Virus record (IMG/VR): IMGVR_UViG_3300025788_000001
Coordinates: 3,074 to 67,073 of that record
Direction: 5' to 3' (one strand)
From: a virus
Length of the DNA: 64,000 nucleotides
The notes under the pieces are model-generated. The model was given only the letters and a program-made list of their open reading frames with translations. It was not told the DNA's origin and made no database searches. Both the position numbers and the translations under genes were made by a program. Every line of letters begins with the position of its first letter. The first letter of the stretch is position 1. Below are positions 3,001 through 43,849 of this stretch, piece by piece.

Positions 3001-3879
3001 TATACAGCTATGTCTTACGATGATGACGACTATAAAAACGCTACGGCATCTGAACGTATTGGTAACTGGTTTATTAAAGTTCCGGGAATTGACGAAAAAG
3101 TTAAAGTACCTATTCCATTTGAAGTCGGTGGTATTTTTAAAATGCTTCCTGAAATGCTCTACTCAACTATGTTTAGAGACAAGAAGCTGGGTGAAGCGGC
3201 CTCAGAAACATCTAAGTATGTTGTGGATAATTTCTTACCTTCGTTTACACCGACAGCCATTAAGCCAGTTATTGAGCTTGGGTCTAACTACTCATTCTTT
3301 ACAGGCAAACCGATTGAAAGCCAGCGTCTAATGGAGCTAGCTCCGGGGCAACGTTCGTATGCAAACACACCGGAAGCATTAAAGCTACTTGGGGAAGCTA
3401 CAAATATATCTCCAGTTAAGGTGGAGTACATGCTGCGCGCATACACAGGTTCGTTACCACTAGCTGTTTTATCTTTAGCTAACCCAGTCGGCGGTGCGGA
3501 AAGGCCTGAAGGGCGCGGCGCTTTAAGTAGTACAAGCCCTGTTATCGGCGCTTTCTTCCAGCCTAAAGATGCAAATGGTCTAGTTGATAAAGCGTACCAG
3601 CAAATGCAGGACGTAATCCAAGCGGACCGCACATATAAAAACTATATTGATAGCGGTAGAGATGAAGAAGCGGAAGCATACATAACCAAAGAAGCTGATT
3701 TAATTGGTATGGCTAGCTTCTCTGGAGACTTTAGGCATAAAATGGGTACGCTAGCTAAACAAGAACGTGCTATTAGATCGATGACTGGCATTAGTGGGGC
3801 TGAAAAACGTGCCGCTTTGGACGAAATTAAAGACGCTAAAATCGAGCTCTCTAAAGCATTCCTCAGCGCACGCGAGTAA
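1..3879 (+). CDS. Large internal virion/ejection (polyvalent-type) protein, 5'-truncated; zincin-like motif and LPD38-like C-terminal region
   Basis: Frame is open from base 1. HEITGH...HE zincin-like motif. C-terminal NFSKKG..FLNAQIQG..IPFEVG..NYSFFTGKPI pattern resembles LPD38. Confidence 0.7.
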   Translation, partial: RLESQKAPVKDREGLVKEKDKLMSQIKATDQVLNARRIGMIVGQAQEEQGSKRYKASKTEKKMVKEGKLEEKGVTPLAYEMVLQAYNENAKTAAPKVEFNNKIHTLATVELRLDRGTNLTAQRRKQLEKLKNKLRKELGNLADAAEGEQVSAEDEAKELGVDPEAYKRLLRAMDIGFKPRVGEGRSSGIQMLRSAAQAVVDKLKIPKGLNVTVIQDLSSTMKQYIRERGYNPDLTKGFVTENGDVVIVAANHKTTNEIAETLAHEITGHLGVEAILGKEGMTALVKKITTQKGGVMALADKLGVGDDAHAAYTAALDSGQTKDEALEAAVHEMIAHTAEKHPSKDWVGKANEWIKALVGEFRAALRRMGIKLDTNTSDVYKLLREARRDFKEVNPGAYKEANGNIQFSSKPSYNSKFADLGGDVSKIVHANKTATDKVKSVAAGFKTPSNIIKTGGILSPENLLALRTRYIDRFAPIERVAEQLTAKLKSSLEGTQLMYYLRMFDQGINWVAQTAAHGPMSIIEKKRKDGKVERIVETKEGASLLKVSQALKEADVGDANAANQLFTFYLAAKRAANKGLDTLNFGPEVTQDMLDKVMDRINSDAKTKTAFEKAAGIYNEYNRGLVEFGVQTGRFSKEEAAKLLKENDYVPFYRIDKNGDIALDIGGATPIHIGNIKNQPYLHELAGDNKPILDVFTSALQNTRMLTDMSLRNLATRNVAFSLQELGLLKVKKSRAGKEFGSGIYPGKMEAGPDVIHFKIDGVDHHAVVDTESIGIPAELLVKGMDGVQTSIPNLVKVAGYPARLLRSFITRNPAYAVRQIARDSLSNAFVTGANSVPIIDNLKELGSMLKGVNEGELLLRSRGILGGQVLGNASDAMQKAMLQIIDGKPGWEKAMAYLDHVAMMGDASSRITSYNSFIKQGLSDMEATLAALEAMNFSKKGTSPSLYLLNQMVPFLNAQIQGMDVLYKAFAGKMPFADKLDIKKKIWQRGAMMAAFTMAYTAMSYDDDDYKNATASERIGNWFIKVPGIDEKVKVPIPFEVGGIFKMLPEMLYSTMFRDKKLGEAASETSKYVVDNFLPSFTPTAIKPVIELGSNYSFFTGKPIESQRLMELAPGQRSYANTPEALKLLGEATNISPVKVEYMLRAYTGSLPLAVLSLANPVGGAERPEGRGALSSTSPVIGAFFQPKDANGLVDKAYQQMQDVIQADRTYKNYIDSGRDEEAEAYITKEADLIGMASFSGDFRHKMGTLAKQERAIRSMTGISGAEKRAALDEIKDAKIELSKAFLSARE

Positions 3880-4054
3880 ACCACACCCCCATCTTGCCAT
3901 TCTTGCGCCCTATCTCTGCCTTGGCTTGTACTCGGTGGTAAAGGGCGGCTTTTAAACCGTTAACCCTTACCTCCTCAAACTTTAATGTAGGAACAAAGAA
4001 GCCCCCTTGTGCGGGGACTTCTAACCACGGAAAATGCACTTTAATCTTCCTCAC
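3863..4054 (-). CDS. Hypothetical protein
   Basis: 63-aa ORF coupled to the primase-helicase; its stop overlaps the convergent gene. Confidence 0.6.
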   Translation of the reverse strand: MRKIKVHFPWLEVPAQGGFFVPTLKFEEVRVNGLKAALYHRVQAKAEIGRKNGKMGVWFTRVR

Positions 4055-10847: not shown

Positions 10848-11089
10848 TCTTTTTCCTTTGCTAATATCTGAGCTGCTCTATGAATTTTTCCATCAAACCA
10901 ACGACGAACAACATAACTGCGAACAACAGAAATGACTGTGTAAAGTAATCCCATGTAAAAGTTGTTAGTAAGAGTAATATGGAACCCAAAAAGAGGAAGG
11001 ATAAGCAGGTTAGCAACAAAGTTAATACCAAAACCAATCCCCACATTGATACACGCTTCATAAAAACTCCCTAGTTTAGTCTGCCTCAT
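10844..11089 (-). CDS. Small two-TM membrane protein
   Basis: Two hydrophobic segments, then RSYVVRRWF. Confidence 0.7.
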   Translation of the reverse strand: MRQTKLGSFYEACINVGIGFGINFVANLLILPLFGFHITLTNNFYMGLLYTVISVVRSYVVRRWFDGKIHRAAQILAKEKE

Positions 11090-11631
11090 TTCTCTTGTGC
11101 CTTTCTTAGTATTGCTCTAGCAAAATCTATTTGGTAGTGATGCCAATTTTTATAGTCTTTAAACACTTCATCTGCTACCTTCCGTATTTCCTCATCTGTT
11201 AGTGTCTTTGCTGGATGGGTGTAGAGTGGAATAGCAAGATAACCTTCTGCTGGTTCATACCCAACATAAACAAATTCACCGCCTACACTACTCATCCACG
11301 CTACTGGTTTGTTGTCAACTTGTAATAGCTGATTAGCGACATTTTTGGCATCATCGTAGCTATTGAGCGACATTTTAGTTTTTAATTCTTCTATCTCAGC
11401 TTGTTGCTGGCGTAGCATGGTGGCTGTCTGCATAAATATTTCGCCAGAAAAACCATTAGCCCTAGCTTCAGAGGCTTTATTTCCTTGAAATTCAATCAGT
11501 TCATTTGCGTTCAGAGAAGTCCGATTAGGGTTTACTCTTTTCCATATATGTTCATATGTGTAGCCTAGCGCAAGAGCTTCTGCCTCGGTCATTGCGAGCC
11601 TGTTTCCATCTTTGTCATGAAATATAATCAT
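11086..11631 (-). CDS. Mosaic-family protein containing all shared modules (NANEL, ATMLRQQQAEIE, PVAW, IPLYTHPAKTLTDEEI, FARAILRKAQEK)
   Basis: Near-identical DNA blocks shared with genes at 18087-20520. Confidence 0.75.
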   Translation of the reverse strand: MIIFHDKDGNRLAMTEAEALALGYTYEHIWKRVNPNRTSLNANELIEFQGNKASEARANGFSGEIFMQTATMLRQQQAEIEELKTKMSLNSYDDAKNVANQLLQVDNKPVAWMSSVGGEFVYVGYEPAEGYLAIPLYTHPAKTLTDEEIRKVADEVFKDYKNWHHYQIDFARAILRKAQEK

Positions 11632-11735
11632 TTTCTTCTCCGATTAACCATATCTTTTTGAATGATAATTCCACCAAAATAAATTAAGACAGCTATATAC
11701 ACAACGACTAGCACACCTATAATAATTTCATTCAT
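11628..11735 (-). CDS. Single-TM peptide (35 aa, not in ORF track)
   Basis: MNEIIIGVLVVVYIAVLIYFGGIIIQKDMVNRRRK; ATGA overlaps at both ends. Confidence 0.5.
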   Translation of the reverse strand: MNEIIIGVLVVVYIAVLIYFGGIIIQKDMVNRRRK

Positions 11736-12130
11736 GGCATTAACTCTTTAGGTGGACGATCATCGCCTTCTCGGTAAGTCTTGCTATACAGCGTTAGCAT
11801 CCGTAGATTACACATCACATGAGCTAGATGTGGTAGTCCTGATTCGGGGTCTAGTTCTTCACCTCGTTGCCAAGCAGCTAAGTGTCTCATTGCACAAGCA
11901 TAGGGAACAGACCAAGGCATTCCTTTAGCCCAATTCCAAGCAGCATATTTCTTTGTACCATACATCCAAACTCTAGCCTCATCTTCCAATGTAGCTAGTG
12001 GGATCAAACTAAGATCGGCTTTACCGCCGTTGAACCTAGCGCCTGATCCTTTTGCTGTACTGTTTACATCTCCTATACCTTTAGTTACTGTATCGTCACT
12101 GTGGTATACGTATTCTTCGTTTGGCATCAT
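11732..12130 (-). CDS. DUF5664-type dATP/dGTP diphosphohydrolase
   Basis: GKADLSLIP..GTKKYAAWNWAKG..RHL..DPESGLPHLAHVMCN signature. Confidence 0.8.
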   Translation of the reverse strand: MMPNEEYVYHSDDTVTKGIGDVNSTAKGSGARFNGGKADLSLIPLATLEDEARVWMYGTKKYAAWNWAKGMPWSVPYACAMRHLAAWQRGEELDPESGLPHLAHVMCNLRMLTLYSKTYREGDDRPPKELMP

Positions 12131-12136
12131 TCCTCC

Positions 12137-12394
12137 TTATTTGATTGAGCCATCTGCCTTCCTTGGGAAACTTCTATTAGCACTAGCACTCTTAGCTTTA
12201 AGATTACTTCGTACCGTCTTACCGCCTTTGCTTAGGGGCTTGGTGTGATCTACATCCTTGCCATCGCCTTTATGCACTACGCCTTCCCTCTCAAGCATAC
12301 GTCTAGCTTTATTGCGTTGGGCGCGTTTCTTCTTAACGGCTTCTGTGCCGTCGTAGTTTAGGTACTCTTGTCGAAAATTACGCTTAGCTACCAT
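12137..12394 (-). CDS. Small HNH-type protein
   Basis: GKDVDHTKPLSKGG..SNL..ANR. Confidence 0.7.
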   Translation of the reverse strand: MVAKRNFRQEYLNYDGTEAVKKKRAQRNKARRMLEREGVVHKGDGKDVDHTKPLSKGGKTVRSNLKAKSASANRSFPRKADGSIK

Positions 12395-12893
12395 TTTTAA
12401 GTCCTTTCTTATTGTGCTCGGCTACTGCCTCACACCAATCAATAAATTCCTCTACAGAGGTATCGTTTCTAAAGCTGTTTACTGCCCTACAAACCATTTG
12501 AATATTATCGGGCGTATACCCTCCGCCTGCAACAATACGATCTATGGACGCATTTGTTTTTGTTATTACGCCTTTTTCTAAAGAGCAGGTCAAGTCTCGC
12601 CCCGTTAGAGCACACTTGTAGTTTTGCTTTTCAAGTCTGTCTAGAATAATCTGCTTAGTTAGTTTGTCTCTTTTTCTACCGCCATAATACAAAAGGCGTG
12701 CGGCATACCTTGACCAATCACCGCTTATATATGCGTATTGATTCTCAGTAGACTGTATACCTGTAATGTATTTCCATTTGCCTTTACATTGTGGAGAACA
12801 AAATTTATGTACGCCCGAACGTGGAGTAAACAAAGTACCACAAACAGCGCATGCTTTTTGTTTAAATGTTTGTGGTGTGTCCCAGCGTGGCAT
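12384..12893 (-). CDS. HNH-like endonuclease with Zn finger
   Basis: CAVC..CSPQC; CALTG..SIDRI..GYTPDNIQMVC..VN. Confidence 0.7.
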   Translation of the reverse strand: MPRWDTPQTFKQKACAVCGTLFTPRSGVHKFCSPQCKGKWKYITGIQSTENQYAYISGDWSRYAARLLYYGGRKRDKLTKQIILDRLEKQNYKCALTGRDLTCSLEKGVITKTNASIDRIVAGGGYTPDNIQMVCRAVNSFRNDTSVEEFIDWCEAVAEHNKKGLKNGS

Positions 12894-12904
12894 TTTGTTC
12901 TCTC

Positions 12905-13573
12905 TTAATAATGTTTGCGGTGAAACTCACAGCTTTTTACAGGACACCACCCACATAGCGGGGTGCTATTTGGATTCCATATGTCATTGTCGTGGCTAGA
13001 GGCGAGCTTGGCAACCCGTTCTCTATACTTATTCCAATGGTAAGGGGCATCTTCTAACAGCATTTTATGCTTAACCGCACTCCCTTTAACTACAAATAGT
13101 AGGGCTGAGTTAACTTGCCGTATGTGGGGGAAGTGAGCAAACACCATCAAAGACATTAGGATTAGCTGATCTCGGTCAGGATACTTGTCGTTGCCTGTCT
13201 TATAGTCAATAACCCAAGCCTTTAAGCCATCGTCATCAATAATAAGTAAGTCAGCAATACCGCGTACCCAAACGTCGTCATCTTTAAAACCGCATGGGGA
13301 GAGGTCAACCCTCAACCCCATCTCATACTCAGCTAACTTGCGTCCTTCTTTTTTAAGTAGGCTATCCAGTACTGGCTTCATGTAGTCATACTCAGGGGGC
13401 AGGGGTGTGCCATCCTTAACGTAAACTTCTGCCGCTTCATGCACTTGCTTACCGTAGATAGTGTGGACAGTATCAGTGAAGGGGTAGTTTTTAAGTACCT
13501 TGACTTCATGAAACCTCCTAGCACAACCTTCGTAATCTTTAAGCCCTGAATGGCTCCACTTAATTGTAGTCAT
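12905..13573 (-). CDS. PD-(D/E)XK exonuclease (Cas4/RecB-like)
   Basis: WSHS..C, GIADL..IDYKTG, QL, C-terminal CGWCPVKSC. Confidence 0.85.
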   Translation of the reverse strand: MTTIKWSHSGLKDYEGCARRFHEVKVLKNYPFTDTVHTIYGKQVHEAAEVYVKDGTPLPPEYDYMKPVLDSLLKKEGRKLAEYEMGLRVDLSPCGFKDDDVWVRGIADLLIIDDDGLKAWVIDYKTGNDKYPDRDQLILMSLMVFAHFPHIRQVNSALLFVVKGSAVKHKMLLEDAPYHWNKYRERVAKLASSHDNDIWNPNSTPLCGWCPVKSCEFHRKHY

Positions 13574-13869
13574 TAGAATTTTGCTGTTCGTATGGCTTGT
13601 TCAAGGCGGTCGGCAAACCCACTAACAAATGTTTCCTTGGCGTTTAGTTTGGACTCACCCATATCGTACAAAATAGCATGAACAATCTCATGCCACAAAG
13701 TATTATGTTGCCGCGATGCCGCCTGCTTAGCAATGGATATAGTGTGGTTACTGTAGTTATATGCACCTCGGCACTCATCCCTACCGACAAACACACTATC
13801 GTATAGCTCTACTTTGATTTTGGTTTTGCCTATTGTTATTACCTTTGGTACTGCAAATCGTTTGGTCAC
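13573..13869 (-). CDS. Small HExxH metallopeptidase-like protein
   Basis: TLWHEIVHAIL..E. Confidence 0.6.
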   Translation of the reverse strand: MTKRFAVPKVITIGKTKIKVELYDSVFVGRDECRGAYNYSNHTISIAKQAASRQHNTLWHEIVHAILYDMGESKLNAKETFVSGFADRLEQAIRTAKF

Positions 13870-15854
13870 TTCGCTTCTCCATATCGTTTGGCACAGCCGG
13901 TCTCAGCGTCAAGAGGGATTCCTGACATGTACTTAGGATCTGCTACCATCTGCGCGTGTACCCAAGTTTCAGCTCCTACGGCTTCTGTCTCGGGAACTAG
14001 TACTACAACTTCATCATGCACAGTTAGTACACACGGATACCTCTTTTGTATCCGTAGCATCCCATCCGTCATGACACATCGTGCTACTGCTTGCACAATA
14101 TTTTCTACTATTTTACCACCATACAGCTTCTTAGGCTTGTTCTTATCATCCCCACCATACTGCCATTGGATTCTACCCTTGTTGTCAGCTACTCCTTCAA
14201 GGTTTGGGTATCTTAAAGATAGCCCACTAGGTAGCTCAATGCTCTCCTTGGCAAACTTAATGCACTTGTAAGGATGTTCTTTACCCCTAGATAAGCAAGT
14301 CAAAATAGCATCGCTACATAGTTGCCAAAAAGCAACAACTGGTTGGGCTTTACTTCTATAGATGTCGATGATCTTCTTGGCAGATACGCAATGAATCAAT
14401 AGCTCGTCCTCCGTACAAGTATGAGGTATAGCCCGCATCTTTTCTAAGTTATTATCCCACCCAATAAAGTCTTGCATGTCTTGGCCAGTAACACCGAGTT
14501 GTTTAGCAAACGCTTTATCGTACATCGTAGGGGGTGCACCTAGAAAGCCCGTCAATAATTGAGCCGCAAAGCTAGCCCAACCCATGCCATAGCCACATCC
14601 TAAGAGAGCTGACTTCGCTGATTGGCGGAGATCCGCATGGTCTTTTTTATTGAGACCGGCAATACCGAACATCTGTGCTCCGAACGCCGCATATGCGTCT
14701 TGCCCTGACGCAAAGATTTCAAGAAGATTTTGATAGTCGGCGAGGTACGCAAGTACACGCGGTTCAATCTGCGATAGGTCGCAAACAACGAGAGTGTAAC
14801 CTCTCGGCGCTTGAATACTTTTGCGTAAAAAAGACCCCCGCTTGAGGTTCTGCAGATTAAGCCCCGAACCCTTGCTCGCTGACCAACGACCGGTGTGGGC
14901 GCCGTAATAATTGAGCGGGACAGGTAGCGTACCTCGTTCTGATATATCCACGAACCTTTGCGCTCGCGTTCTTTCAAGTGTCGACTTAACTTTAAGCCTC
15001 GCTTCACAAATAAGCGATACGTCTTCGTTGTTTGAATTAAGCAGTGCTTGGAAGAGGGCATCCGTTTTAGCGAAAGCGAAAGCTTCTTTACCAGTCGTCT
15101 TGCTAATTTTTGTTGGGGGGGATACCCCAAGTGCCCTAAGGACTTCAGCAAACTGATCGTTACTAGCCAACGCCGTTTCATCAACGTTAACTTTTTTAAG
15201 GATCGCTTCGCGCTTGGTACGCTCATCAATAATGGCTTCATTCAACATCTCCTTATCAAGTTCAAGGACGGGGTCAATAAACATTTTTAGTGTGAGGTCG
15301 ATAAGCTTTAGCTCACCTTTTGGATAGCCACCCGTGATTTCCTCGTTTAAGCTATTAAATATTGCTTCGCACAAGAACACATCATGAAGACAATAAGTCG
15401 CTAGCTCTTCCTCTATGTTTAGCGGTAGTTCCTCCAAGCCGTCGGTAGAGTAGACTGCTTGCCCTTTTGGTGGGAGCTCGTAGTATTCTGCGAGTTTGGC
15501 GAGGCTATTTCCGACCTCAACGCCCCTAAGAGCACGAGCCATAGATAGAGAATCAAAAATAAAAATAGGATGCGCGCCGTAAACCCATGACAAAATCGCC
15601 ACATCAAACTGGGCATTGTGCGCAAGCACCGCCGTCCGACTCCAATCAACTGACTCGACCCATTGAGGGAGGTTCTCATGCGTAACCCAATGCGACTTGT
15701 CATCGCCATACTCTTTCCAACCAATTCCAAATGCTTTAAATTTATCATCACGAATGTACTCCTCCGTTGTCATCTTAGATAGGGTGTAGTCTGACCTATC
15801 CCATCTTGTCTCAAAGTCCACGACCAGTAGTCGGTCAAATGGTTTGTTTGCCAT
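13866..15854 (-). CDS. polA: Family A DNA polymerase with 3'-5' exonuclease
   Basis: DFET and HNAQFD exonuclease motifs; DLSQIEPR (A), RQSAKSALLGCGYG (B), TVHDE (C). Confidence 0.92.
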   Translation of the reverse strand: MANKPFDRLLVVDFETRWDRSDYTLSKMTTEEYIRDDKFKAFGIGWKEYGDDKSHWVTHENLPQWVESVDWSRTAVLAHNAQFDVAILSWVYGAHPIFIFDSLSMARALRGVEVGNSLAKLAEYYELPPKGQAVYSTDGLEELPLNIEEELATYCLHDVFLCEAIFNSLNEEITGGYPKGELKLIDLTLKMFIDPVLELDKEMLNEAIIDERTKREAILKKVNVDETALASNDQFAEVLRALGVSPPTKISKTTGKEAFAFAKTDALFQALLNSNNEDVSLICEARLKVKSTLERTRAQRFVDISERGTLPVPLNYYGAHTGRWSASKGSGLNLQNLKRGSFLRKSIQAPRGYTLVVCDLSQIEPRVLAYLADYQNLLEIFASGQDAYAAFGAQMFGIAGLNKKDHADLRQSAKSALLGCGYGMGWASFAAQLLTGFLGAPPTMYDKAFAKQLGVTGQDMQDFIGWDNNLEKMRAIPHTCTEDELLIHCVSAKKIIDIYRSKAQPVVAFWQLCSDAILTCLSRGKEHPYKCIKFAKESIELPSGLSLRYPNLEGVADNKGRIQWQYGGDDKNKPKKLYGGKIVENIVQAVARCVMTDGMLRIQKRYPCVLTVHDEVVVLVPETEAVGAETWVHAQMVADPKYMSGIPLDAETGCAKRYGEAK

Positions 15855-15862
15855 TGGGTTCC

Positions 15863-16066
15863 TTAGTTAAATATAAATACACCAAATAGGGTGGCTACAA
15901 GCACACCCACATATACTACTGAAACCGTTTTGCGTCTTTTAATTTCTTTAATGTTTCCTATAAGGGCTGTTTGTAGAATCTCCATATCCCCATCAATCGG
16001 TGGTCGCCGATCAGGGCGGTAGTTAATACCCATTTTTATTTTGCCGTTATCGTAAGGAACATTCAT
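15863..16066 (-). CDS. Small protein with C-terminal TM helix
   Basis: 67 aa with a hydrophobic C-terminus. Confidence 0.6.
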   Translation of the reverse strand: MNVPYDNGKIKMGINYRPDRRPPIDGDMEILQTALIGNIKEIKRRKTVSVVYVGVLVATLFGVFIFN

Positions 16067-16236
16067 ACATGCCCTCCAGTAACCAGACTTGGGGCACTTC
16101 TAAACGTTTTTAAATCGCGTTCTCGTGGGTGGATTGTTGGTTTGTAGATGACCGTAGTATTTACAGTTCTTGGTTGTGCCCATTTGATTGGGTCGGATTT
16201 ATCTTCTTCGATTACTCTTTTTGGTTTACTACTCAT
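16063..16236 (-). CDS. Small hypothetical protein (57 aa, not in ORF track)
   Basis: MSSKPKRVIEEDKSDPIKW...; its stop overlaps the next start. Confidence 0.5.
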   Translation of the reverse strand: MSSKPKRVIEEDKSDPIKWAQPRTVNTTVIYKPTIHPRERDLKTFRSAPSLVTGGHV

Positions 16237-16245
16237 TTGTTTTCC

Positions 16246-16473
16246 CTAGTTTAATGTTCGGTTATCCATGTGTTGCTTTACATAGAACCCAGTTGTTACA
16301 GCCGCATCATTCAGTAGCTCAGGAACTTCCCATTCTTCGATGTTAATTCCATAAATCTTAACTACCTGAGACTCGTAGTCGTAGCCTACAACAATGGCAC
16401 AGGAATTCTTTTCCTCGTCCACGCAGTCGTTCAGTATATCTTGTACTGCTTTGTAGGTTTCATTAGCTTCCAT
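16246..16473 (-). CDS. Hypothetical protein
   Basis: ORF within the operon. Confidence 0.6.
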   Translation of the reverse strand: MEANETYKAVQDILNDCVDEEKNSCAIVVGYDYESQVVKIYGINIEEWEVPELLNDAAVTTGFYVKQHMDNRTLN

Positions 16474-16771
16474 GTCGATCCTTTAGTTCTTGCAAAGTGT
16501 CAGTAACATCATAAATGTTATCTTCATTTACGACCATTGTTACTCCGCCAGCCTTTCGTATTAACGCCATTTGCGCTTCTTGGAGAGGAGTAGGTTTGTT
16601 ATTGCCCGCCTTACACTCGATGCCAATAAACAAACCAAGGTAACAAGCCACAATATCAGGTACACCACTACGCCCAAAACCTCCAGTAACAGGGTAGAAA
16701 TAATACGCCCCATAAGAGTTAAGTACATTGACCACCTTCTTCTTGACCTTGGCTTCGGGTGTCATGCTCAT
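16463..16771 (-). CDS. VRR-NUC domain nuclease (putative resolvase)
   Basis: E..V, GVPDIV, FIGIECK..KPTPLQ. Confidence 0.85.
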   Translation of the reverse strand: MSMTPEAKVKKKVVNVLNSYGAYYFYPVTGGFGRSGVPDIVACYLGLFIGIECKAGNNKPTPLQEAQMALIRKAGGVTMVVNEDNIYDVTDTLQELKDRHGS

Positions 16772-16965
16772 TGTAGTTCCGCATTGCGTCTCCTAACTTC
16801 GTCGATCCGTTGTAAACAAGCTACTATCTGAAAGCGTTGTTTATCTAGCATCTGAAAATCGCCGACAGCTTCCGCCTTAAGTGCAAGAATAACCTCAGCC
16901 TCTAAATTACATAACGCCGCATTTTCCCTGACTATCTTTAGTACTTCCAACTCACTTAACTGCAT
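16768..16965 (-). CDS. Hypothetical protein
   Basis: ORF with coupled overlaps. Confidence 0.5.
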   Translation of the reverse strand: MQLSELEVLKIVRENAALCNLEAEVILALKAEAVGDFQMLDKQRFQIVACLQRIDEVRRRNAELQ

Positions 16966-17245
16966 TGCGTAGCTCCTTCATAAATTCCCTTCCTTTATCA
17001 GTTAGCGCATGATACACGCTTCTTTTGTCGTCAGATTCGTTGTACTTGTGCATAAGCTTTTTAGCTATGGCGGAATTGACGTGGTATTGGGCAGTGGTAG
17101 ATACCATCGCCCCTTGCTTATTAACTAAAGCTAGAAGCCGAGTAGTTGTTATAGGCTCAGTCTTTTCCACCAAACCAATAACATACTCCTCGCCCCAAGA
17201 CACGCCAACCTCATCTCTAATATGTTGGGTGGCAAATATAGTCAT
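16952..17245 (-). CDS. MarR-like winged-helix protein
   Basis: DDKRSVYHALTDKGRE wing motif. Confidence 0.6.
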   Translation of the reverse strand: MTIFATQHIRDEVGVSWGEEYVIGLVEKTEPITTTRLLALVNKQGAMVSTTAQYHVNSAIAKKLMHKYNESDDKRSVYHALTDKGREFMKELRNAVK

Positions 17246-17823
17246 TACTTAATCTGCTTTCCGAACACTTGGTTAAGCTCAGCCCATAGCTCGCGTGCTT
17301 GGTAGATGTTAAGGCTATTTACTAAGTCCTTCACGCTAGTATGAACAGGCAAAACCGCAGGCTTGGTAAACTTTTCAACATTCTCGGCGTCTATCGTTGC
17401 TTGCTTCATACGCTTAGTCGCTTCCACTACACTAACATACTTCTTGCTTACCACCTTAACTGCCTTTTTCTTCTTACTGTAAAGCCCCTTGACCTGCGTT
17501 GTGTATGTAGAAGCTACCGCCCAGTATACGAATACCATGCGTCTACCGAACCCTTTGTAGTTCTTGTTTACAATCGGGGCACGCCCAATCAGTTGGCGGT
17601 CGTATAGGGTTTTAAGTGATGAGGCTAGCCCCGCAACGTCGTCTTTATCGATATCAAATGCGGTTCGCAAAGTTTCTAAACTACATTGAGGGTTGGCTTT
17701 GATGTGCTCGTATACAGATTCACAAAAAGATTTTTTCTCTGTTACTGGCGTAGATGTAACTTCTTCTACTGGTAGGTTCCAACTGTTGATGATTTTTTGT
17801 ACTTCAGTTTGAATATCTGGCAT
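17245..17823 (-). CDS. Hypothetical protein, possible winged helix
   Basis: 192 aa, AGGA RBS, basic. Confidence 0.6.
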   Translation of the reverse strand: MPDIQTEVQKIINSWNLPVEEVTSTPVTEKKSFCESVYEHIKANPQCSLETLRTAFDIDKDDVAGLASSLKTLYDRQLIGRAPIVNKNYKGFGRRMVFVYWAVASTYTTQVKGLYSKKKKAVKVVSKKYVSVVEATKRMKQATIDAENVEKFTKPAVLPVHTSVKDLVNSLNIYQARELWAELNQVFGKQIK

Positions 17824-17886
17824 AACTTTTCCTTTGTTTGTAATACTTCTGTAATTTTACTACAAATTTTAACTGTTGTTTTTTAA

Positions 17887-18090
17887 CTACTTTTTCTCAA
17901 TTAACTTAAACAGTTTCTCAACCATCTCTTCAGCGTCTAGTGCTATATTGATAAGGGCTAACAACTTCTCGTTAAATGCAGGTTCTAGGTTAGCGGCGTT
18001 ATCCACCGCCCCTATGTTTGTGAGTTCCGCTATTTCATTGTGTAGCGTTCTTATGTCCGAGCCTAGCTCGTTGATCCTTTGTTTATTCAT
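17887..18090 (-). CDS. Hypothetical protein
   Basis: Likely start MNKQRINE at the ATGA junction at 18087-18090. Confidence 0.5.
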   Translation of the reverse strand: MNKQRINELGSDIRTLHNEIAELTNIGAVDNAANLEPAFNEKLLALINIALDAEEMVEKLFKLIEKK

Positions 18091-18314
18091 TTCTCTTGTG
18101 CCTTTCCAATATCTATTGTAGGAATATCTACCCATTCCCCATACGCTATGCCTACCGAATACTTCTCTTTCCATATCTGCCACCATTTAGATATTTTGGT
18201 TTGTTCTTCATAAACATATCGCCATTGTGCAAGGTATTCATATTGCATTGCCGTTATATCAGCATAGGAGGATGGCACTAATCTTTTAGCCAATCGGTAT
18301 TCTTTTGTACGCAT
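18087..18314 (-). CDS. Hypothetical protein ending in the KAQEK junction module
   Basis: Ends ...GKAQEK with the shared junction DNA. Confidence 0.6.
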   Translation of the reverse strand: MRTKEYRLAKRLVPSSYADITAMQYEYLAQWRYVYEEQTKISKWWQIWKEKYSVGIAYGEWVDIPTIDIGKAQEK

Positions 18315-18529
18315 TATTTTTCTTGTGCCTTTCTTAGTATTGCTCTAGCAAATTCAATAATGTCTTGTGCGCCATTAAGATTATTCTTTTGTGTCCACAA
18401 AGCTAATATTTCACTATCTGTTAGTGTCTTTGCTGGATGGGTGTAGAGTGGAATATGGTAAATCTCGTCTTTAACCACACTAAAAAGTAATTCGTTAGCC
18501 GCCATCCACGCTACTGGTTCGTTGTTCAT
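18314..18529 (-). CDS. Mosaic-family protein (MNNEPVAW..IPLYTHPAKTLTD..FARAILRKAQEK)
   Basis: Shared DNA modules. Confidence 0.7.
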   Translation of the reverse strand: MNNEPVAWMAANELLFSVVKDEIYHIPLYTHPAKTLTDSEILALWTQKNNLNGAQDIIEFARAILRKAQEK

Positions 18530-18711
18530 TTGCAGTTCTTTCTTAATCGTTTAGTTTTATCTTCGTTATCACTAAAGTATTTACAATCCTTACCTTCTCT
18601 AGGACTATCTACAAAGTAAGACTGATACTCTGGTGTAGCCCTAGCAGTAAAGCGATAACATCTCTCACGCTTCTTACAGGTCTCGTCACGACACATTGTT
18701 ATATCAGCCAT
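18526..18711 (-). CDS. Small Cys-containing protein
   Basis: DITMC..C..CYRF..C. Confidence 0.6.
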   Translation of the reverse strand: MADITMCRDETCKKRERCYRFTARATPEYQSYFVDSPREGKDCKYFSDNEDKTKRLRKNCK

Positions 18712-18989
18712 TAGTTCATCCCCGTAAGTCCATGTTGCGACTGTACTGTCTTAACATATTGCACTGCGTCCCAGAAGCCATTCTCATACTCTTCAGATTG
18801 AGTCCCTGTCATCGTAATGTCTTCAGCCCACACAACCATTTTGTCAAGATGTACAAGCTGTCTATGCTGTTGCTCAATCAACTCCTGAGCTTTCATCAAG
18901 ATAACATGAGCAGTACCCCAAGGAAGTTCAGAAGTTTCTTCTAAGTAGTCGGTAATATCTTTTAATACTTTTTCTCTAAGCAGTCTCAT
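18711..18989 (-). CDS. Hypothetical protein
   Basis: Starts at a junction ATGA. Confidence 0.55.
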   Translation of the reverse strand: MRLLREKVLKDITDYLEETSELPWGTAHVILMKAQELIEQQHRQLVHLDKMVVWAEDITMTGTQSEEYENGFWDAVQYVKTVQSQHGLTGMN

Positions 18990-19261
18990 TTATCCTGTGC
19001 CTTTCTTAGTATTGCTCTAAATTTGTCTGCTACATGGCGATACAAGATTTCCATGTCTGCTTTGCTGTGTCGGTCAAAATGGTTCATCCAATAGTCGGCT
19101 GATTCTCTAGCTTCTTTTAATATTTCCTCATCTGTTGTTAGTGTCTTTGTTGGCTGTGTGTAAAGTGGTTTCCAATAATCAACTTCACAATAAGGCTTCT
19201 TCTCTACAATCTTTGTGCCATGACCTGTTTTAAGAATCCACGCTACTGGTTCATTGTTCAT
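18986..19261 (-). CDS. Mosaic-family protein
   Basis: MNNEPVAW..PLYTQPTKTLTTDEEI..FRAILRKAQDK. Confidence 0.7.
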   Translation of the reverse strand: MNNEPVAWILKTGHGTKIVEKKPYCEVDYWKPLYTQPTKTLTTDEEILKEARESADYWMNHFDRHSKADMEILYRHVADKFRAILRKAQDK

Positions 19262-19518
19262 TTCTCACTAGCCTTTCTTAGTATTAGATGGGCAAAATAA
19301 TGTTGTTGCGTAGTAAATCCGTGTTGCATAGCAATCCCATCTTCATGCGATTTTGCCCACAATTCGTTTACTACATCATCTGTTAGTGTCTTTGCTGGAT
19401 GGGTGTAGAGTGGAATATTGGCGTGTTCATTTTCTTTTGGATATGCTTTTGTGTCATACCCTTCTTCTAAATATTGAAGGCTAAATTTACTTATCCACGC
19501 TACTGGTTCATTGTTCAT
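19258..19518 (-). CDS. Mosaic-family protein
   Basis: MNNEPVAW..IPLYTHPAKTLTD..ILRKASEK. Confidence 0.7.
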   Translation of the reverse strand: MNNEPVAWISKFSLQYLEEGYDTKAYPKENEHANIPLYTHPAKTLTDDVVNELWAKSHEDGIAMQHGFTTQQHYFAHLILRKASEK

Positions 19519-20111
19519 TTCTCTTGTGCCTTTCTTAGTGCTTTAGCAGTAGCTAATACAATCTTTTTGTATTTGTTAAATTCTTCCCCAGTTTTCCAAA
19601 TCTCATGCCCTACTGGCACAATTTCTGCATCTTGAAGAATAGCTACTACATTTATCTCCTCATCTGTTAGTGTCTTTGCTGTTGCCGCCTTGTAGCCTTT
19701 CTCAAACCCAATAGCTTCAGCAATGCCTAAATCGTGTTCTGCTGGATGGGTGTAGAGTGGAATAGGCTCTGTTGTCCCTGTAACTTTCCATGCAAACTTA
19801 ATGTCATAGATTGTTGCGCCTTCTCCTTCAGGGTAAAAATGTCCTACTGGTTCATCTAAACCCCCCATAAGTGTAGGGTTTGTTGGTACTTGTTCAATCT
19901 CCTCAGATGATTTAGACAATCTCCATAGTGCTAACTCTTTTTTCAACGCTTCTATCTCAACTTGTTGCTCATGGAGTATTTCTTCATACTTACTTGTTAT
20001 CCTTTCAATTTCTACCTCTTGCTGGCGGAGCATGGTGGTTATTTCTTCTCTAGTTACCAGCTTGTACCAACTGTCAACTTCTAATAGGTCGGCTAATTCA
20101 TTTGCGTTCAT
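19515..20111 (-). CDS. Mosaic-family protein (long form)
   Basis: MNANEL..TMLRQQ..EPVG..IPLYTHPA[21-aa insert]KTLTDEEI..LRKAQEK. Confidence 0.7.
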   Translation of the reverse strand: MNANELADLLEVDSWYKLVTREEITTMLRQQEVEIERITSKYEEILHEQQVEIEALKKELALWRLSKSSEEIEQVPTNPTLMGGLDEPVGHFYPEGEGATIYDIKFAWKVTGTTEPIPLYTHPAEHDLGIAEAIGFEKGYKAATAKTLTDEEINVVAILQDAEIVPVGHEIWKTGEEFNKYKKIVLATAKALRKAQEK

Positions 20112-20269
20112 TTCTCTTGTGCCTTTCTTTCTTCTAGCTCTACCTTGGCTAGTTCTATTATGTATTGATTTTTATCTATACCAAGTTTTTCAGCAAGAGC
20201 TAATGCCAAGTCAGGCACAATAAACTGATGGACTGTTTTACCATCTTTCTTTACCTTTATAGTCTTCAT
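20108..20269 (-). CDS. Small protein (53 aa, not in ORF track) bounded by two junction repeats
   Basis: MKTIKVKKDGKTVHQFIVPDLALALAEKLGIDKNQYIIELAKVELEERKAQEK. Confidence 0.65.
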   Translation of the reverse strand: MKTIKVKKDGKTVHQFIVPDLALALAEKLGIDKNQYIIELAKVELEERKAQEK

Positions 20270-20520
20270 TTCTCTTGTGCCTTTCTACTTATCATTCCAT
20301 CAGCATACCCAATTTGTCTGCCACGCTCAAATGCATCTAAGCAATACTGTTCTGCTTTTTTTACTTCATGGTCTTTTTGGCAATAAGCATCTTTTAATTT
20401 TTCAATGCCTTCTTTCAACGCTTCTATTTCAGCTTGTTGCTGGCGTAGCATGGTGGCTGCTTCTTGCAAACAAGGTATTGCAGTAAATTCCAATTCCTTA
20501 ATTAGTTCATTAGCGTTCAT
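20266..20520 (-). CDS. Mosaic-family protein
   Basis: MNANEL..ATMLRQQQAEIEAL..RKAQEK. Confidence 0.7.
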   Translation of the reverse strand: MNANELIKELEFTAIPCLQEAATMLRQQQAEIEALKEGIEKLKDAYCQKDHEVKKAEQYCLDAFERGRQIGYADGMISRKAQEK

Positions 20521-21538: not shown

Positions 21539-21698
21539 TATCTTCCTCCTCAATTCGATCAGCTTCTTCACACATAAAATCAAACTGCATATCCAAAACA
21601 TTAAAGTGCTTACCGGCTTCAGCTTCGGCATCATCGCAGTTATCTGCCTCCACTTCTACATATGCGCACCCAGTTACTAATACATTCCATCTGCTCAT
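21531..21698 (-). CDS. Small acidic protein (55 aa, not in ORF track)
   Basis: MSRWNVLVTGCAYVEVEADNCDDAEAEA...; GGAGG RBS and ATGA overlap. Confidence 0.55.
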   Translation of the reverse strand: MSRWNVLVTGCAYVEVEADNCDDAEAEAGKHFNVLDMQFDFMCEEADRIEEEDSE

Positions 21699-22465
21699 AC
21701 AACCTCCTTAATTGCATTAACATATTTGTTAACAGTCGAACCCTCTAGACCGCACGCAGTATTTACTTCTAACACATAGCACTTATCCTGTGCCTCATTC
21801 CATGCAACATCTACTGCACCGAAGTCTAGCCCTAACGCATCAACGGCAGAGATAGCAACCCCCCTAAGAGAGTGAGGTTCTTCGATACCACCTCGACAAA
21901 AGACATACCCATTTGCATGGTTTCTAATATAAGGGTGGTGGTCATCAACACTAGAACTCCTACGCTTTTCTTGTATGTCAAGAATTTTACTATTAAATAC
22001 ATGAACTCTGAACTCCTTTTGCTTGCGTATGTATTTTGTATACAACGGGGCATCTACTAACTCTGAGTGTTGTTTGGCTACAACAATGCCTTGCCCTGAG
22101 TGTGCGGTGAGTAGCGTACGACATACTACCTTGAAGCCCTGTTCTATCCAGTCCTTTGCCTTGTCCTTGTCTGTTGTGTATTCAGGGTGGGGGACATCGG
22201 CTAGCTTAAAATGCAGTAACGACCTGTGTTTGTTTGACGCAACGCTGACGGCACTAGCGGAGTTGATGACCGTAGCATTTGTATCACTAATCCCACTACT
22301 ACCCCAGTTAATAACGACACGACTAGGCTTGCACAAGCCGACACGCTCAGGGTTTATAAACAACACATCTCTACCTAATGCTTCGCTCAGTCCTTTCTTT
22401 AATAGCCTTGCACTTTTACTGCCTCGTTTGTATGGGGCTATGGCTACCCTTGATGTGTTTGTCAT
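21695..22465 (-). CDS. ATP-grasp (RimK-like) ligase
   Basis: ASNK, HSGQGI, EFRVHV, LDFGAVD, VLEVNTACG. Confidence 0.85.
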   Translation of the reverse strand: MTNTSRVAIAPYKRGSKSARLLKKGLSEALGRDVLFINPERVGLCKPSRVVINWGSSGISDTNATVINSASAVSVASNKHRSLLHFKLADVPHPEYTTDKDKAKDWIEQGFKVVCRTLLTAHSGQGIVVAKQHSELVDAPLYTKYIRKQKEFRVHVFNSKILDIQEKRRSSSVDDHHPYIRNHANGYVFCRGGIEEPHSLRGVAISAVDALGLDFGAVDVAWNEAQDKCYVLEVNTACGLEGSTVNKYVNAIKEVV

Positions 22466-24216: not shown

Positions 24217-25692
24217 TTACACTTCAGCTAATTGTTCTTTCTTCTCGAAACGTGGGTTAGCTTTAACGATTGCTGATTTATCTAGCATGAATCCCTTAGA
24301 CTGCAAGAATGACCGTAGATTGATTGTGTCCTTGCGGTTGTCAGGCTGGCAAATAAACTTGAGGAAGTTATCCGTAGTTAAGTCTTGTTGCCCTGTATCA
24401 CGACTAAAGAACCAAGCCATGTAAGTAAACTCAAGACAAGACATGATGGTCTCATAGCGTAGCGTGCCCTTAAACAAGCGGAACTCAATAGTTCTCTCGG
24501 GCTGGAAGTTAACCGACTCATACCGATCCTCATTCAAGCGTTGCATACCATTACGCTTGCCGTGCTTGAGCCATGCATAGTCGGCTGTCTTGTTCTTAAC
24601 CTGTGAATAGCGGTTGCCATCTCGTCTTGCTATGGTACGAAAGAGTCGCTGGTTTCTACTATCGTGCATGAACAGGATTAACTTTGCCGCATGAAACATA
24701 CTCATACCCTTCTTGCAAATGTGAACATGAAGCCCACAAGTCTTGGTATCGTGCGACTTAACATCAGCCCATCTACGCTTAAAGAACTCTAACTGCTTGG
24801 CATGAACATCTAACCCTGTGTAGCCAGTCACCATCTCAAAGCCGTGGCTAAGAGACCCATCGTCTTCTAAGAAACAATAGTTGTGCCCTTCAGGCGTAAC
24901 ACCGATAGCCTCGAACAACTCCTCAGCCTTAGCCTCTCGGTCGCAACCATCGCCGACCTCCATCTCAAGCTCAAGCCCCATGTAGATCTTAGTCTCTCGC
25001 TTGGAGAACTCAGTTGGGATAAGACCTAGCTTACGCTTACTACTATGATAACCCCCGATGAAGCGGCTTTCTTCTTCCTCCTCCTCATCGTCTTCGATGT
25101 CAGGCTCTTCATCATCTTCATGCACCACGCTATCATGGTAGTCTGACCAACGATAGCTATTCTCCCTACAACTAGAGCACACCCATCTGTCGCCGTTATA
25201 CACCCAAGAGCCATCGTCTTCTGCTTCTATGTACTCGCAGTCAGAGCAAACCTCATATGTAGGTGCGTCGGGGAATTTATCCGAATCGTTAATCATTTCG
25301 CACCAATCGCTACTACCTGCCATATCCCTAATGTCAGGGTTGTCATTAAGCATACAAACTAACTCACTATCGTCTTGAGTTCTAAAACACTCCCTAGCCC
25401 TCACTCCGAAGTCGTATAGAGCACGCTTGCGAGTCATAAGCGAGACATAACTTGTTACTGAAAACCGATTGAGTCGGTTGCCGTGCCATTGTTGTGTTAC
25501 TAAGAGGTTGTTCTTGATAGTGTGCCTACTATGATCTACTGCTTCCGCCATAGTCCATGCGTGTGGTCTTTCCATGTGATTCAACTTCATGCTGAGGAAT
25601 GTCCGCAACACGTCATGCTTACCATCGGGCAGGCTTGCTTTGCGAAGACGGACTGCTTCTACCTGTGCAACTGTATATGTAACTGTTGGCAT
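24217..25692 (-). CDS. Putative amidoligase (COOH-NH2 ligase) with Zn ribbon
   Basis: GLELEME, EDDGSL, GFEMV, CGLHVH, RY.SVN, TIEFRLF; CSDC..CSSC. Confidence 0.85.
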   Translation of the reverse strand: MPTVTYTVAQVEAVRLRKASLPDGKHDVLRTFLSMKLNHMERPHAWTMAEAVDHSRHTIKNNLLVTQQWHGNRLNRFSVTSYVSLMTRKRALYDFGVRARECFRTQDDSELVCMLNDNPDIRDMAGSSDWCEMINDSDKFPDAPTYEVCSDCEYIEAEDDGSWVYNGDRWVCSSCRENSYRWSDYHDSVVHEDDEEPDIEDDEEEEEESRFIGGYHSSKRKLGLIPTEFSKRETKIYMGLELEMEVGDGCDREAKAEELFEAIGVTPEGHNYCFLEDDGSLSHGFEMVTGYTGLDVHAKQLEFFKRRWADVKSHDTKTCGLHVHICKKGMSMFHAAKLILFMHDSRNQRLFRTIARRDGNRYSQVKNKTADYAWLKHGKRNGMQRLNEDRYESVNFQPERTIEFRLFKGTLRYETIMSCLEFTYMAWFFSRDTGQQDLTTDNFLKFICQPDNRKDTINLRSFLQSKGFMLDKSAIVKANPRFEKKEQLAEV

Positions 25693-43643: not shown

Positions 43644-43652
43644 GAGCAGGAC

Positions 43653-43847
43653 ATGGGATATAAAAGCGCAGCCGACGGAATTACACATAAGGGCAAAACT
43701 AAAGGTAAAAACCTTGGCGATGCTGGCTCACACGTTGGCGTTGAGATGGGCAAAAAAGTCGGTAAAGGTATTGCTGGCGGTAAAACTAACGACGACATGA
43801 AAGCAATTGGTCGTAACGAAGCTAAAATTAAAGCTAACGGGAAATAA
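43653..43847 (+). CDS. Small basic protein
   Basis: ADGITHKGKTKGK; AGGA RBS. Confidence 0.55.
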   Translation: MGYKSAADGITHKGKTKGKNLGDAGSHVGVEMGKKVGKGIAGGKTNDDMKAIGRNEAKIKANGK

Positions 43848-43849
43848 TC

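Follow-up and report, generated by a model that had tools for sequence, protein, structure and literature searches.

In T4-type phages, promoter-early stem-loop (PeSL) cassettes are defined by intergenic elements of ~100 bp that contain a sigma-70 promoter and a terminator stem-loop (PMC2839356, PMC4122927), and shuffling of these cassettes is proposed to occur via homologous recombination, including excision between direct repeats (PMC2839356). In the gp38 adhesins of T2/T6-type phages, glycine-rich motifs separate hypervariable segments (PMC3157838). The SAS repeat of Cluster K mycobacteriophages, a 13-bp sequence with the consensus GGGATAGGAGCCC, is described for a single phage cluster (PMC3203893), and the polymorphic toxin loci (CDI, Rhs) carry a conserved motif before exchangeable C-terminal cassettes (PMC3482391). 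Here we analyze a locus in a 64,000-nucleotide stretch (hereafter the window) of the IMG/VR virus record IMGVR_UViG_3300025788_000001. The window covers bases 3074-67073 of this 67,073-bp record, which has direct terminal repeats and is rated complete. The early region contains nine small cassettes at 18087-20520 (the array) and one at 11086-11631 (site B), in which short sequences, termed anchors, recur around unrelated variable segments. One anchor, the junction AGAAAGGCACAAGAGAAATGA, lies at the gene ends.

The anchors are conserved at the DNA level, the variable segments are reassorted between them, breakpoints lie at the anchors, and the elements are spread over phage lineages. These patterns suggest recombination as the agent. 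The best reading of the locus, and probably the correct one, is population-level homologous recombination at short nucleotide-conserved linkers, by which cassettes and gene parts are shuffled. According to this reading, the region would be an accessory-gene island of small coupled cassettes in the early/replication arm of a freshwater phage, and the portable junction of ~21 nt would close each cassette and bring the start signal of its successor. The substrate would be near-identical anchors of 20-56 nt that are common to many otherwise unrelated phages of the same habitat, and recombination would take place during co-infection as well as among the direct repeats of a single genome. A crossover at the junctions would insert, delete or replace whole cassettes, and a crossover at the internal anchors would swap the first variable segment (V1), middle inserts, the second variable segment (V2) or a coiled-coil arm. 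Frequent exchange would homogenise the anchors.

The locus resembles PeSL cassettes, as these are described in the reports cited, in that small genes, most of them ORFans, are flanked by short conserved sequences in early regions that are plastic, in that homologous recombination, including excision at direct repeats, is the proposed mechanism, in that the element supplies the expression signals of the cassette, and in that insertions, deletions and replacements between close relatives are bounded by the repeat, as is the case here for four of four relatives. It differs from them in that the element is ~21 nt long, coding and stop/start-overlapping, and probably provides signals for translation rather than transcription. 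A sigma-70-like early promoter is not found at the junction: 16 promoter-like sites are present in 11 kb against 23.5 expected, and none of those listed lies within a junction copy. Stem-loop terminators are not enriched either (9 terminator-like sites against 9.0 expected, none of those listed being inside a junction copy), and the genes overlap by ATGA. Further anchors are located inside the genes, and the element is common to many unrelated phage backbones.

The likeness to gp38, as far as it is described in the source, lies in conserved motifs that would form the core of a small domain, with independent and easily swapped hypervariable segments between them. A core of this type is predicted by an AlphaFold2 (AF2) model of the 71-aa array protein (pLDDT 85.7; a prediction only), in which anchor residues are on strands and helices and V1 and V2 lie between them. 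In contrast, gp38 is an adhesin of the virion tail fibre and is known to affect host range, whereas the genes analyzed here encode small proteins of the early region, are located among DUF927 primase, SNF2, PolA and ATP-grasp genes rather than in a tail-fibre locus, occur in 1-8 copies per locus, and gave no credible sequence or fold match to solved structures in the searches described below. Like the SAS repeat, the junction is an asymmetric, one-orientation repeat just 5' of gene starts in the non-structural arm with a Shine-Dalgarno-like core, and SAS likewise precedes a subset of non-structural genes of different families. The consensus is, however, AGAAAGGCACAAGAGAAATGA and not that of SAS, and the junction also encodes a C-terminal peptide, marks breakpoints and spans many phage lineages, whereas SAS is discussed in its report for translation initiation and not for cassette exchange (PMC3203893). 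PeSL, gp38 and SAS are the closest known systems, but the locus fails defining features of each, as these features are given in the reports cited, and is a member of none of them.

The CDI and Rhs loci, as described in the source, are similar in that a conserved coding boundary is the crossover point for unrelated downstream modules from a cassette pool. They differ in that they are not early genes of phages but encode large secreted bacterial toxins, with paired immunity genes and a single boundary in each gene.

Diversity-generating retroelements (DGRs) use a reverse transcriptase and a template repeat, and introduce adenine-templated changes that leave the length unchanged. A DGR shares with this locus the phage-borne variation of a protein on a constant scaffold. 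It was rejected as a candidate because no reverse transcriptase is found and because the variable segments are of unequal length and unalignable, without an equal-length repeat pair that differs at adenines. An integron-like system was rejected because no integrase is found and because the junction has no inverted symmetry as read. The Pfam search behind these statements gives a match to a reverse transcriptase or integrase for 0 of 91 open reading frames (ORFs) of the window, the 3 kb of genome outside the window not being covered; the absence of both enzymes, as noted in a first-pass annotation of the window, is therefore upheld for the ORFs scanned. A search of the full-text literature found no description of the motifs or the concept within the library covered.

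Nucleotide conservation of the anchors and reassortment of the variable segments

The first-pass annotation had described six genes (11086, 18314, 18986, 19258, 19515 and 20266) that are built from the same ordered modules. All six are real ORFs of the minus strand. The shared modules are present in general, but not in each gene: the gene at 20266 has only NANEL, LRQQQAEIE and the tail, the gene at 19515 has EPVGH for EPVAW and a split IPLYTHPA/AKTLTD, and the anchors of the gene at 18986 are diverged. Unlisted in that annotation are the genes at 18087-18314 and 20108-20269, which share only the KAQEK ending with the family, and the overlap of the C-terminal module with the start codon of the next gene (ATGA). 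The nucleotide-identical anchors are MNANEL, MLRQQQAEIE, MNNEPVAW, IPLYTHPAKTLTD and the 3' junction. The 26-nt MNNEPVAW block occurs three times in the window against 0 expected, three window copies of the IPLYTHPAKTLTD block have at least 33 nt in common without a mismatch, and the 40-mer that had been noticed at ~11194, ~18416 and ~19378 is indeed identical in the repeat comparison.

The codons of the anchors were compared among distinct genes from 86 sources, which are the window, the phage genome MW202753 and 84 IMG/VR loci. The loci were retrieved by degenerate back-translated patterns, so that no codon was favoured in retrieval. For ILRKAQEK (52 genes), ATA, AGA, AAG and AAA are used in all 52 genes, CTA (background 0.17) and CAA in 51 each, GCA in 48 and GAG in 46. 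For IPLYTHP, CTC is used in 56 of 61 genes (background 0.09); for MNNEPVAW, GCG in 46 of 50 (background 0.18); and for LRQQQAEIE, CGC in 13 of 13 (background 0.16). The same synonymous codons, including rare ones, are therefore found in the anchors across dozens of unrelated contigs. Substitutions in the anchors relative to the consensus number 109/103/198 at codon positions 1/2/3, and 162 codon changes are non-synonymous against 136 synonymous. In the DNA polymerase gene, compared between the window and the related contig L019, the substitutions number 41/22/131 and synonymous codon changes prevail over non-synonymous ones by 122 to 36; in the PD-(D/E)XK gene, in the same comparison, the numbers are 3/1/21 and 24 to 1. 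Fixed synonymous codons and a substitution pattern that lacks the third-position bias of the backbone genes argue that the anchors are conserved as DNA, beyond the protein level, as had been proposed for the modules.

The anchors are 95.5% identical at the nucleotide level over 300 pairs of 25 strictly matched genes, whereas most V segments fall into different clusters at 60% identity. In pairs of genes that share a V1 type, synonymous codon differences amount to 13.5% in V1 and 5.8% in the flanking anchors; in pairs that share a V2 type, they amount to 3.0% in V2 and 0.9% in the flanking anchors. Saturated synonymous change in the anchors, which would have spoken against the first-pass annotation, is not seen, and the synonymous sites of the anchors are far from saturation. 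The plus strand of the IPLYTHPAK anchor (GCTGGATGGGTG; 18431-18442, with copies at 11209 and 19393) differs from the E. coli Chi octamer by a single inserted base. This resemblance is only a lead for the recombinogenicity of the anchor, and the Chi of E. coli may not be that of the host.

Reassortment was examined among 149 proteins with the full core, in which V1 is located between MNNEPVAW and IPLYTHPAKTLTD and V2 between IPLYTHPAKTLTD and FARAILRKAQEK. At 60% identity, these proteins contain 63 V1 clusters and 73 V2 clusters in 118 combinations, in agreement with the earlier proposal that variable segments are swapped between fixed anchors. One V1 type is paired with 23 V2 types, this being the type of the query itself and hence over-sampled, and one V2 type occurs with 10 V1 types. 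Two V1 types have two V2 types in common, so that all four combinations are present. The V segments differ in length by tens of residues, are unalignable and include unrelated domains. In a metagenomic protein of 211 aa (P0126), the V1 slot is occupied by a complete, in-frame NUMOD4+HNH_3 endonuclease domain, which is flanked by an MNNESVAW start and by THPAKTLTDEEI..FARAILRKAQEK. Core units are also fused in tandem and in frame with the start-codon block retained (P0121, P0141 and P0242), and inserts between IPLYTHPAK and AKTLTD, with a repeated HPAK or KTLTD at their flanks, are found in P0122, P0155, P0198 and the 198-aa gene of the window.

An ordinary paralogous family, in which protein need keeps the anchors and mutation alone has diverged the variable parts, is a very improbable source of this pattern. 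It would agree with the coincidence of the anchors with the predicted hydrophobic core and with a loose pattern in some V1 types (for example ..G.F.....FH), but not with fixed synonymous codons, rare ones included, nor with non-synonymous changes in the anchors that equal or exceed the synonymous ones, opposite to the backbone genes. Differences in V length of tens of residues, the unrelated domains, the pairing of one V2 with up to 10 V1 types, and the presence of the tail on unrelated ORFs are likewise contrary to it. Simple paralogue divergence is thus largely refuted by the codon, substitution, V1/V2 and tail data.

The junction and the differences in cassette content among relatives

The junction encodes the RKAQEK end of one gene, its stop codon and the ATG of the next gene. 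On the gene strand it reads ..AGA AAG GCA CAA GAG AAA TGA, and the final ATGA holds both the stop and the next ATG. Its plus-strand counterpart CATTTCTCTTGTGCCTTTC, the reverse complement of KAQEK-stop with the overlapping ATG, is present in 7 copies in the window (with up to 3 mismatches) against 0.01 expected, and an eighth, more diverged junction copy is located at 19256. All copies in the window are on the gene strand and in the early arm. Among the loci, the exact 16-nt core is found in 99 distinct gene-strand contexts and twice on the opposite strand. The exact 21-mer is present in at least 129 IMG/VR stretches as same-strand tandem arrays, often in 2-4 same-strand copies spaced by ~95-560 nt, on contigs of 4-67 kb. 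The conserved core spans ~21 nt; conservation reaches further upstream only where a core-family gene lies on that side, and no constraint is seen 3' of its ATGA.

A KAQEK-like tail is present in 142 distinct ORFs, 39 of which are otherwise anchor-free and mutually unrelated and include predicted membrane peptides and Cys-rich proteins. In 132 of the 142 ORFs, the stop overlaps the next ATG. Because the C-terminal module also ends unrelated ORFs, a portable gene junction is a better interpretation of it than a protein motif. The junction has AAGG ~10 nt 5' of the ATG, and a Shine-Dalgarno-like 4-mer is present in 47 of 69 window ORFs tested. It is plausible that AAGG is a weak Shine-Dalgarno site with a role in ribosome binding, and the junction may drive coupled translation of the following gene. 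On reading the consensus, no inverted symmetry is seen in the 21-nt junction, no dedicated inverted-repeat scan having been made.

These properties also bear on the possibility that the anchors are conserved mainly as functional nucleic-acid signals and that recombination is a by-product, the junction being a translational-coupling or reinitiation element and the internal anchors being RNA elements or sites that are bound by a factor of the phage or the host. We consider this unlikely as the main explanation. The strand-specific position of the junction exactly at the stop/start overlaps, its AAGG, and the frequency of Shine-Dalgarno-like 4-mers, which indicates that the host uses such sites, are all consistent with it, and the start-proximal SAS repeat of Cluster K mycobacteriophages, as described in its report, is a precedent (PMC3203893); but it leaves unexplained why the synonymous codons of the 39-nt mid-gene anchors are fixed and why the backbone identity of the relatives breaks at the anchors. 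A search of Rfam with E up to 0.1 gives no match, and the absence of an excess of promoter-like or terminator-like sites does not favour it. Conservation as a signal is, however, compatible with recombination at the anchors and does not exclude it.

Exchange of cassettes is seen in four IMG/VR contigs (L018-L021), of which the backbone is 90-98% identical to the window at the nucleotide level. The array content differs from that of the window in all four, with three distinct alternative contents, and the breakpoints are at anchors; the cassettes are thus not a fixed set, a point on which the first-pass annotation had called for comparison of relatives. Identity with all four relatives starts exactly at window position 18106, inside the junction at the downstream edge of the array. 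L020 and L021, which are from two different samples, have the same array of three genes in ~700 bp, where the window has nine in 2.4 kb, and L018 and L019 each have yet other family genes. Site B adjoins a diphosphohydrolase-like gene and shows four states across the window and its relatives: it contains a 181-aa gene in the window, is empty in L018, contains a 104-aa family gene and a 63-aa tailed ORF in L020 and L021, and has been lost from L019 along with the DUF7220 gene beside it. Backbone identity resumes at the site B junction (11084..11107). In a three-way alignment, L020 tracks the upstream context of the window to ATGAACGC and then the context of the 198-aa gene, the first 172 nt of which match L020 at 89% identity. 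A 409-bp block of the window that is absent from L020 consists of the 84-aa and 53-aa cassettes and has an MNANEL anchor at either end, and this two-cassette indel marks a crossover inside the MNANEL anchor.

The positions of breakpoints were further analyzed in 13 high-scoring segment pairs (HSPs) between the array and other loci, each of which shares at least 30 nt of variable sequence. Of the internal HSP ends, 21 of 24 lie in an anchor or within 6 nt of one, against 37% expected (binomial p=5e-7). When duplicate HSPs are removed, by a hand count from the table, 16 of 19 ends are at anchors. The three exceptional ends are located at the boundary of the 61-aa gene of the array. This Cys-rich gene is common to L030, L031 and L101 as a unit with 86-93% nucleotide identity, with one end at a PVAW anchor, and appears to move as its own cassette (phrog_20586).

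The summed contig depth of the anchor-rich bin at 10867-11233 exceeds that of the flanking bins several-fold to ~hundredfold in four metagenomes (733 against 142 and 236 in X4; 3577 against 57 and 32 in X13; 1953 against 33 and 28 in X19). This excess shows that the anchors are common to many other genomes in the same samples. Contigs of the window strain stop at 18106, 19264 and 20433, with record 30 of X4 ending at 18106 and record 32 of X4 beginning at 20433. Anchor-to-anchor contig joints were not counted as recombinants, since their sides are only 20-39 nt long and may derive from other phages.

It is scarcely credible that the mosaicism is an assembly artefact, in which strains are joined at repeated anchors. 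All data are assemblies, the anchors are repeats, and contigs built with k=31 do break there; yet the anchors, at up to 56 nt, are below typical read size, the alternative array is shared by L020 and L021 from different samples, and 0.85-0.95 of the 31-mers of a 5-kb stretch are present in 9 runs of 9 studies. Exact copies of the 71-aa protein are on record for 18 contigs of up to 67,103 bp, and chimeras would not yield codon-identical anchors or tails on unrelated ORFs.

A dedicated enzyme, such as a sequence-specific nuclease of the homing-endonuclease kind or a recombinase, that cuts or pairs the anchors would make the locus a true cassette system; this we regard as improbable. The NUMOD4+HNH_3 domain in the V1 slot of P0126, HNH-like ORFs near site B (12137-12394, E=0.0039) and at 35061-35540, and the indel polymorphism of the ORF at 12384-12893 are consistent with such an enzyme, and arrays often adjoin genes for RecT (8 of 81 loci), ERF (6), PD-(D/E)XK (16) or RusA (14). 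However, recombination genes are the usual content of phage early regions, apart from the cassette family itself, flanking families each reach at most 17 of the 81 loci, and the backbones that carry the arrays are of many kinds and sizes (contigs of 4-67 kb). The anchors, on reading the sequence, have no inverted-repeat or att-like form.

Protein family, predicted structure and genomic setting

For the 71-aa protein, a search of proteins of 39-125 residues gives 5,074 relatives at E<=1e-3, with a Pfam domain in none of the 120 listed, and 528 longer relatives are found as well. A profile search of 1.84 billion representatives (50% identity) gives 4,167 matches at E<=1e-3 and 990 at E<=1e-10, many of them in 2-4 separate stretches. 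Relatives are encoded in at least 499 IMG/VR stretches among the first 603 candidates. Core-family members that could be traced are all from uncultured phages, mostly of freshwater. In a collection of species genomes, 9 loci are found, all on contigs of metagenome-assembled genomes of mixed phyla; these are read as mis-binned phage DNA, so that no host can be named. MW202753, an unrelated circular phage genome of 35.6 kb, contains four family genes in a row (blastn). Two of them, at 3338-3856 (172 aa) and 3853-4023 (56 aa) of MW202753.1, are unannotated in the public record and sit between the annotated genes at 3186-3341 and 4020-4355. A tblastn search of 50,697 phage records with three family proteins gives no match, so that members in cultured phages are not found at that sensitivity.

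Pfam gives nothing above the curated cut-offs for 12 array proteins, and PHROG gives no family for the same 12 except phrog_20586 for the 61-aa protein, with a weak match (0.006) for the 181-aa form. The ESM Atlas returns unnamed viral clusters only, PF26207 at 0.76 being a lead below the bar. No credible match is found in the PDB by profile search (E>=0.3) or Foldseek (E>=4.3), or by the wide VIA-align search (best Z 3.5), and BFVD returns only uncharacterised proteins of uncultured phages.

In the AF2 model of the 71-aa protein, built from an alignment of 99 sequences, strands 7-10 and 24-28 form a small sheet with a short bridge at 16-17, and helices 38-48 and 54-70 come after it. Invariant or near-invariant residues (P5, A7, W8, I26-T30, L36-D38, E40, I41, F60-L65, K67 and A68) are on the modelled strands and helices. 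V1 is a hairpin between the strands, and V2 comprises the end of helix 1, a loop and the start of helix 2. The commonest cassette is thus predicted to be a small alpha/beta domain, with a hydrophobic core formed by the anchors MNNEPVAW, IPLYTHPAKTLTD and FARAILRKAQEK, and the anchors plausibly double as structural core and crossover sites. The model of the 181-aa protein (pLDDT 79.5, pTM 0.38) has a small N-terminal unit and an alpha/beta core after a helix of 41 residues (64-104), which runs over the LRQQQAEIE block. The MNANEL...LRQQQAEIEALK arm of the longer forms is probably helical and coiled-coil.

These models also bear on the possibility that the proteins are precursor peptides, in which the anchors are recognized by a processing enzyme and the variable segments are released as a natural peptide library. 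Cyanobactin and prochlorosin precursors are a model for such libraries. Although nucleotide-identical constant blocks do flank hypervariable cassettes here, and some proteins are multi-unit tandems, this is a highly doubtful explanation: the 71-aa protein is modelled as a single compact domain, of which V1 and V2 are integral secondary-structure elements, no leader-like region is present, and no conserved protease or modification enzyme is found beside the arrays.

From 20520 down to 18087, the array is a continuous chain of overlapping small genes (Table 1), which are presumably translationally coupled. At site B, the stop codon of the 181-aa gene overlaps the ATG of the DUF7220 gene. The 75-aa ORFan has only 2 close relatives among 5.8 billion proteins; both bear the tail, so that a search for tail-less homologues of this ORFan is uninformative. 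The 61-aa Cys-rich gene ends in LRKNCK followed by ATGA, which looks like a decayed junction. In the 198-aa gene, a 22-residue insert separates the IPLYTHPA and AKTLTD halves.

Table 1. Cassette genes, anchors and junction copies in the window
Feature	Coordinates	Strand	Remarks
Site B long-form family gene, 181 aa	11086..11631	-	N-terminal extension, NANEL, MLRQQQAEIE, KPVAW, IPLYTHPAKTLTD, FARAILRKAQEK
ORFan cassette, 75 aa	18087..18314	-	GKAQEK end, otherwise anchor-free
Minimal core gene, 71 aa	18314..18529	-	MNNEPVAW, V1, IPLYTHPAKTLTD, V2, FARAILRKAQEK
Cys-rich cassette, 61 aa	18526..18711	-	phrog_20586 (E 1.2e-10); no anchors
Cassette without anchors, 92 aa	18711..18989	-	no Pfam or PHROG family
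Core gene, 91 aa	18986..19261	-	diverged anchors PLYTQPTKTLTTD, RKAQDK
Core gene, 86 aa	19258..19518	-	tail RKASEK
Long form, 198 aa	19515..20111	-	MNANEL, two LRQQ/EQQ-EIE blocks, EPVGH, IPLYTHPA, AKTLTD, ALRKAQEK
Cassette, 53 aa	20108..20269	-	RKAQEK end, otherwise anchor-free
Gene, 84 aa	20266..20520	-	only MNANEL, ATMLRQQQAEIEALK, RKAQEK tail
IPLYTHPAKTLTD anchor, 40 nt	18416..18455	-	identical copies 11194-11233, 19378-19417
IPLYTHPAKTLTD anchor, split copies	19653-19681 + 19740-19765	-	
IPLYTHPAKTLTD anchor, diverged copy	19124-19173	-	
LRQQQAEIE anchor	20413..20459	-	other copies 11380-11426, 19941-19987, 19995-20041
Full junction + MNNEPVAW block, ~56 nt	19493..19549	-	
Junction, site B	11084..11107	-	RKAQEK, TGA, overlapping ATG
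Junction, downstream edge of array	18085..18108	-	
Further junction copies	18312-18335, 18984-19007, 19256-19279, 20106-20129, 20264-20287	-	

The G+C content of the window is 43.7%. The minus-strand arm, from ~29 kb down to 4 kb, contains replication and accessory genes, which encode a DUF927 primase-helicase, an SNF2 helicase, a DUF7220 protein, a dATP/dGTP diphosphohydrolase N-terminal domain (11732-12130, E=3.7e-29), a PD-(D/E)XK nuclease, a family A DNA polymerase, a RimK-type ATP-grasp protein and an amidoligase. The plus-strand arm contains terminase, capsid, SU10-type adaptor, endolysin and tail genes. The polymerase is only ~32% identical to that of any phage in the collection of 50,697 phage records, and the backbone is therefore novel. 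The sequencing runs listed as containing part of the array stretch are all freshwater or freshwater-sediment metagenomes (24 of 24).

Three further observations concern the genome outside the cassettes. The 169-aa ORF at 12384-12893 is absent from L018 and L019 as a presence/absence polymorphism, and one X19 contig skips 12423-12891 with 20 other letters in its place. Together with the adjoining 85-aa ORF at 12137-12394, which has the weak HNH match given above, it looks like a free-standing mobile gene of the homing-endonuclease type. The RimK-type ATP-grasp protein, the amidoligase and a weak radical-SAM match (among window positions 21695-22465, 24217-25692 and 53110-54561) suggest, with the diphosphohydrolase, that the phage may alter the nucleotide pool or modify DNA bases. 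An LPD38 domain in a 1,278-aa protein and two SU10-adaptor-like proteins (window positions 43-3879 and 42325-45070) point to a virion of podovirus-like type and to a large polyvalent protein that may be injected.

Probable recombination at the anchors and its meaning for freshwater phages

Several points weigh against homologous recombination at the anchors as the source of the mosaicism. Recombination is read from patterns and is not observed directly, and no single-strand annealing protein or other recombinase is recognisable by Pfam among the 91 window ORFs. All sequences are metagenome assemblies, so that the linkage of V1 to V2 rests on no single-molecule read or isolate, and the depth and breakpoint data are from contigs rather than reads. 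The fuzzy DNA matching used in the substitution test is blind to strongly diverged anchors and biases the result toward DNA conservation. Synonymous change in the anchors is only ~2-3 times lower than in the shared V segments, and nucleotide identity among the shared V modules is itself 91-97%; the pool as a whole may thus be of recent origin, and youth alone would lower synonymous change in the anchors. The conservation of the junction, finally, could stem mainly from a role in translation.

The first-pass annotation had further proposed a diversification system. A dedicated system of this kind that operates within the genome is not supported, and the pattern is the one expected if co-infecting phages undergo ordinary homologous recombination. 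A role in anti-defence or host interaction, also proposed there, is purely conjectural; the variable surfaces might bind diverse host or defence targets, a role suggested by the early-arm position, the copy number of 1-8 per locus and the variability of the surface.

A bolder version of recombination at the anchors is possible, but we hold it only tentatively. The cassettes might form one plug-and-play system in many unrelated freshwater phages, in which a universal coding junction guarantees translation and the intragenic anchors make a combinatorial library, the anchors being kept identical by selection for recombinability and the library countering host defences. If this is true, V1, the middle insert, V2 and the coiled-coil arm would multiply into a natural combinatorial library of a small binding domain.

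Among cultured phages, short conserved sequences that direct mosaicism are on record for only a few groups, the PeSLs of T4-type phages being one example. Here, a 21-nt coding junction and intragenic anchors are common to thousands of small genes of uncultured freshwater phages with many backbones. These genes represent a large protein family, with 4,167 clusters at 50% identity, for which the searches gave no Pfam or PHROGs entry and no solved relative. The locus offers a clean natural system in which to study the minimum homology for productive exchange, the assembly of new small proteins from parts, and the trade between phages of accessory early genes, the early region being the usual home of anti-defence genes.

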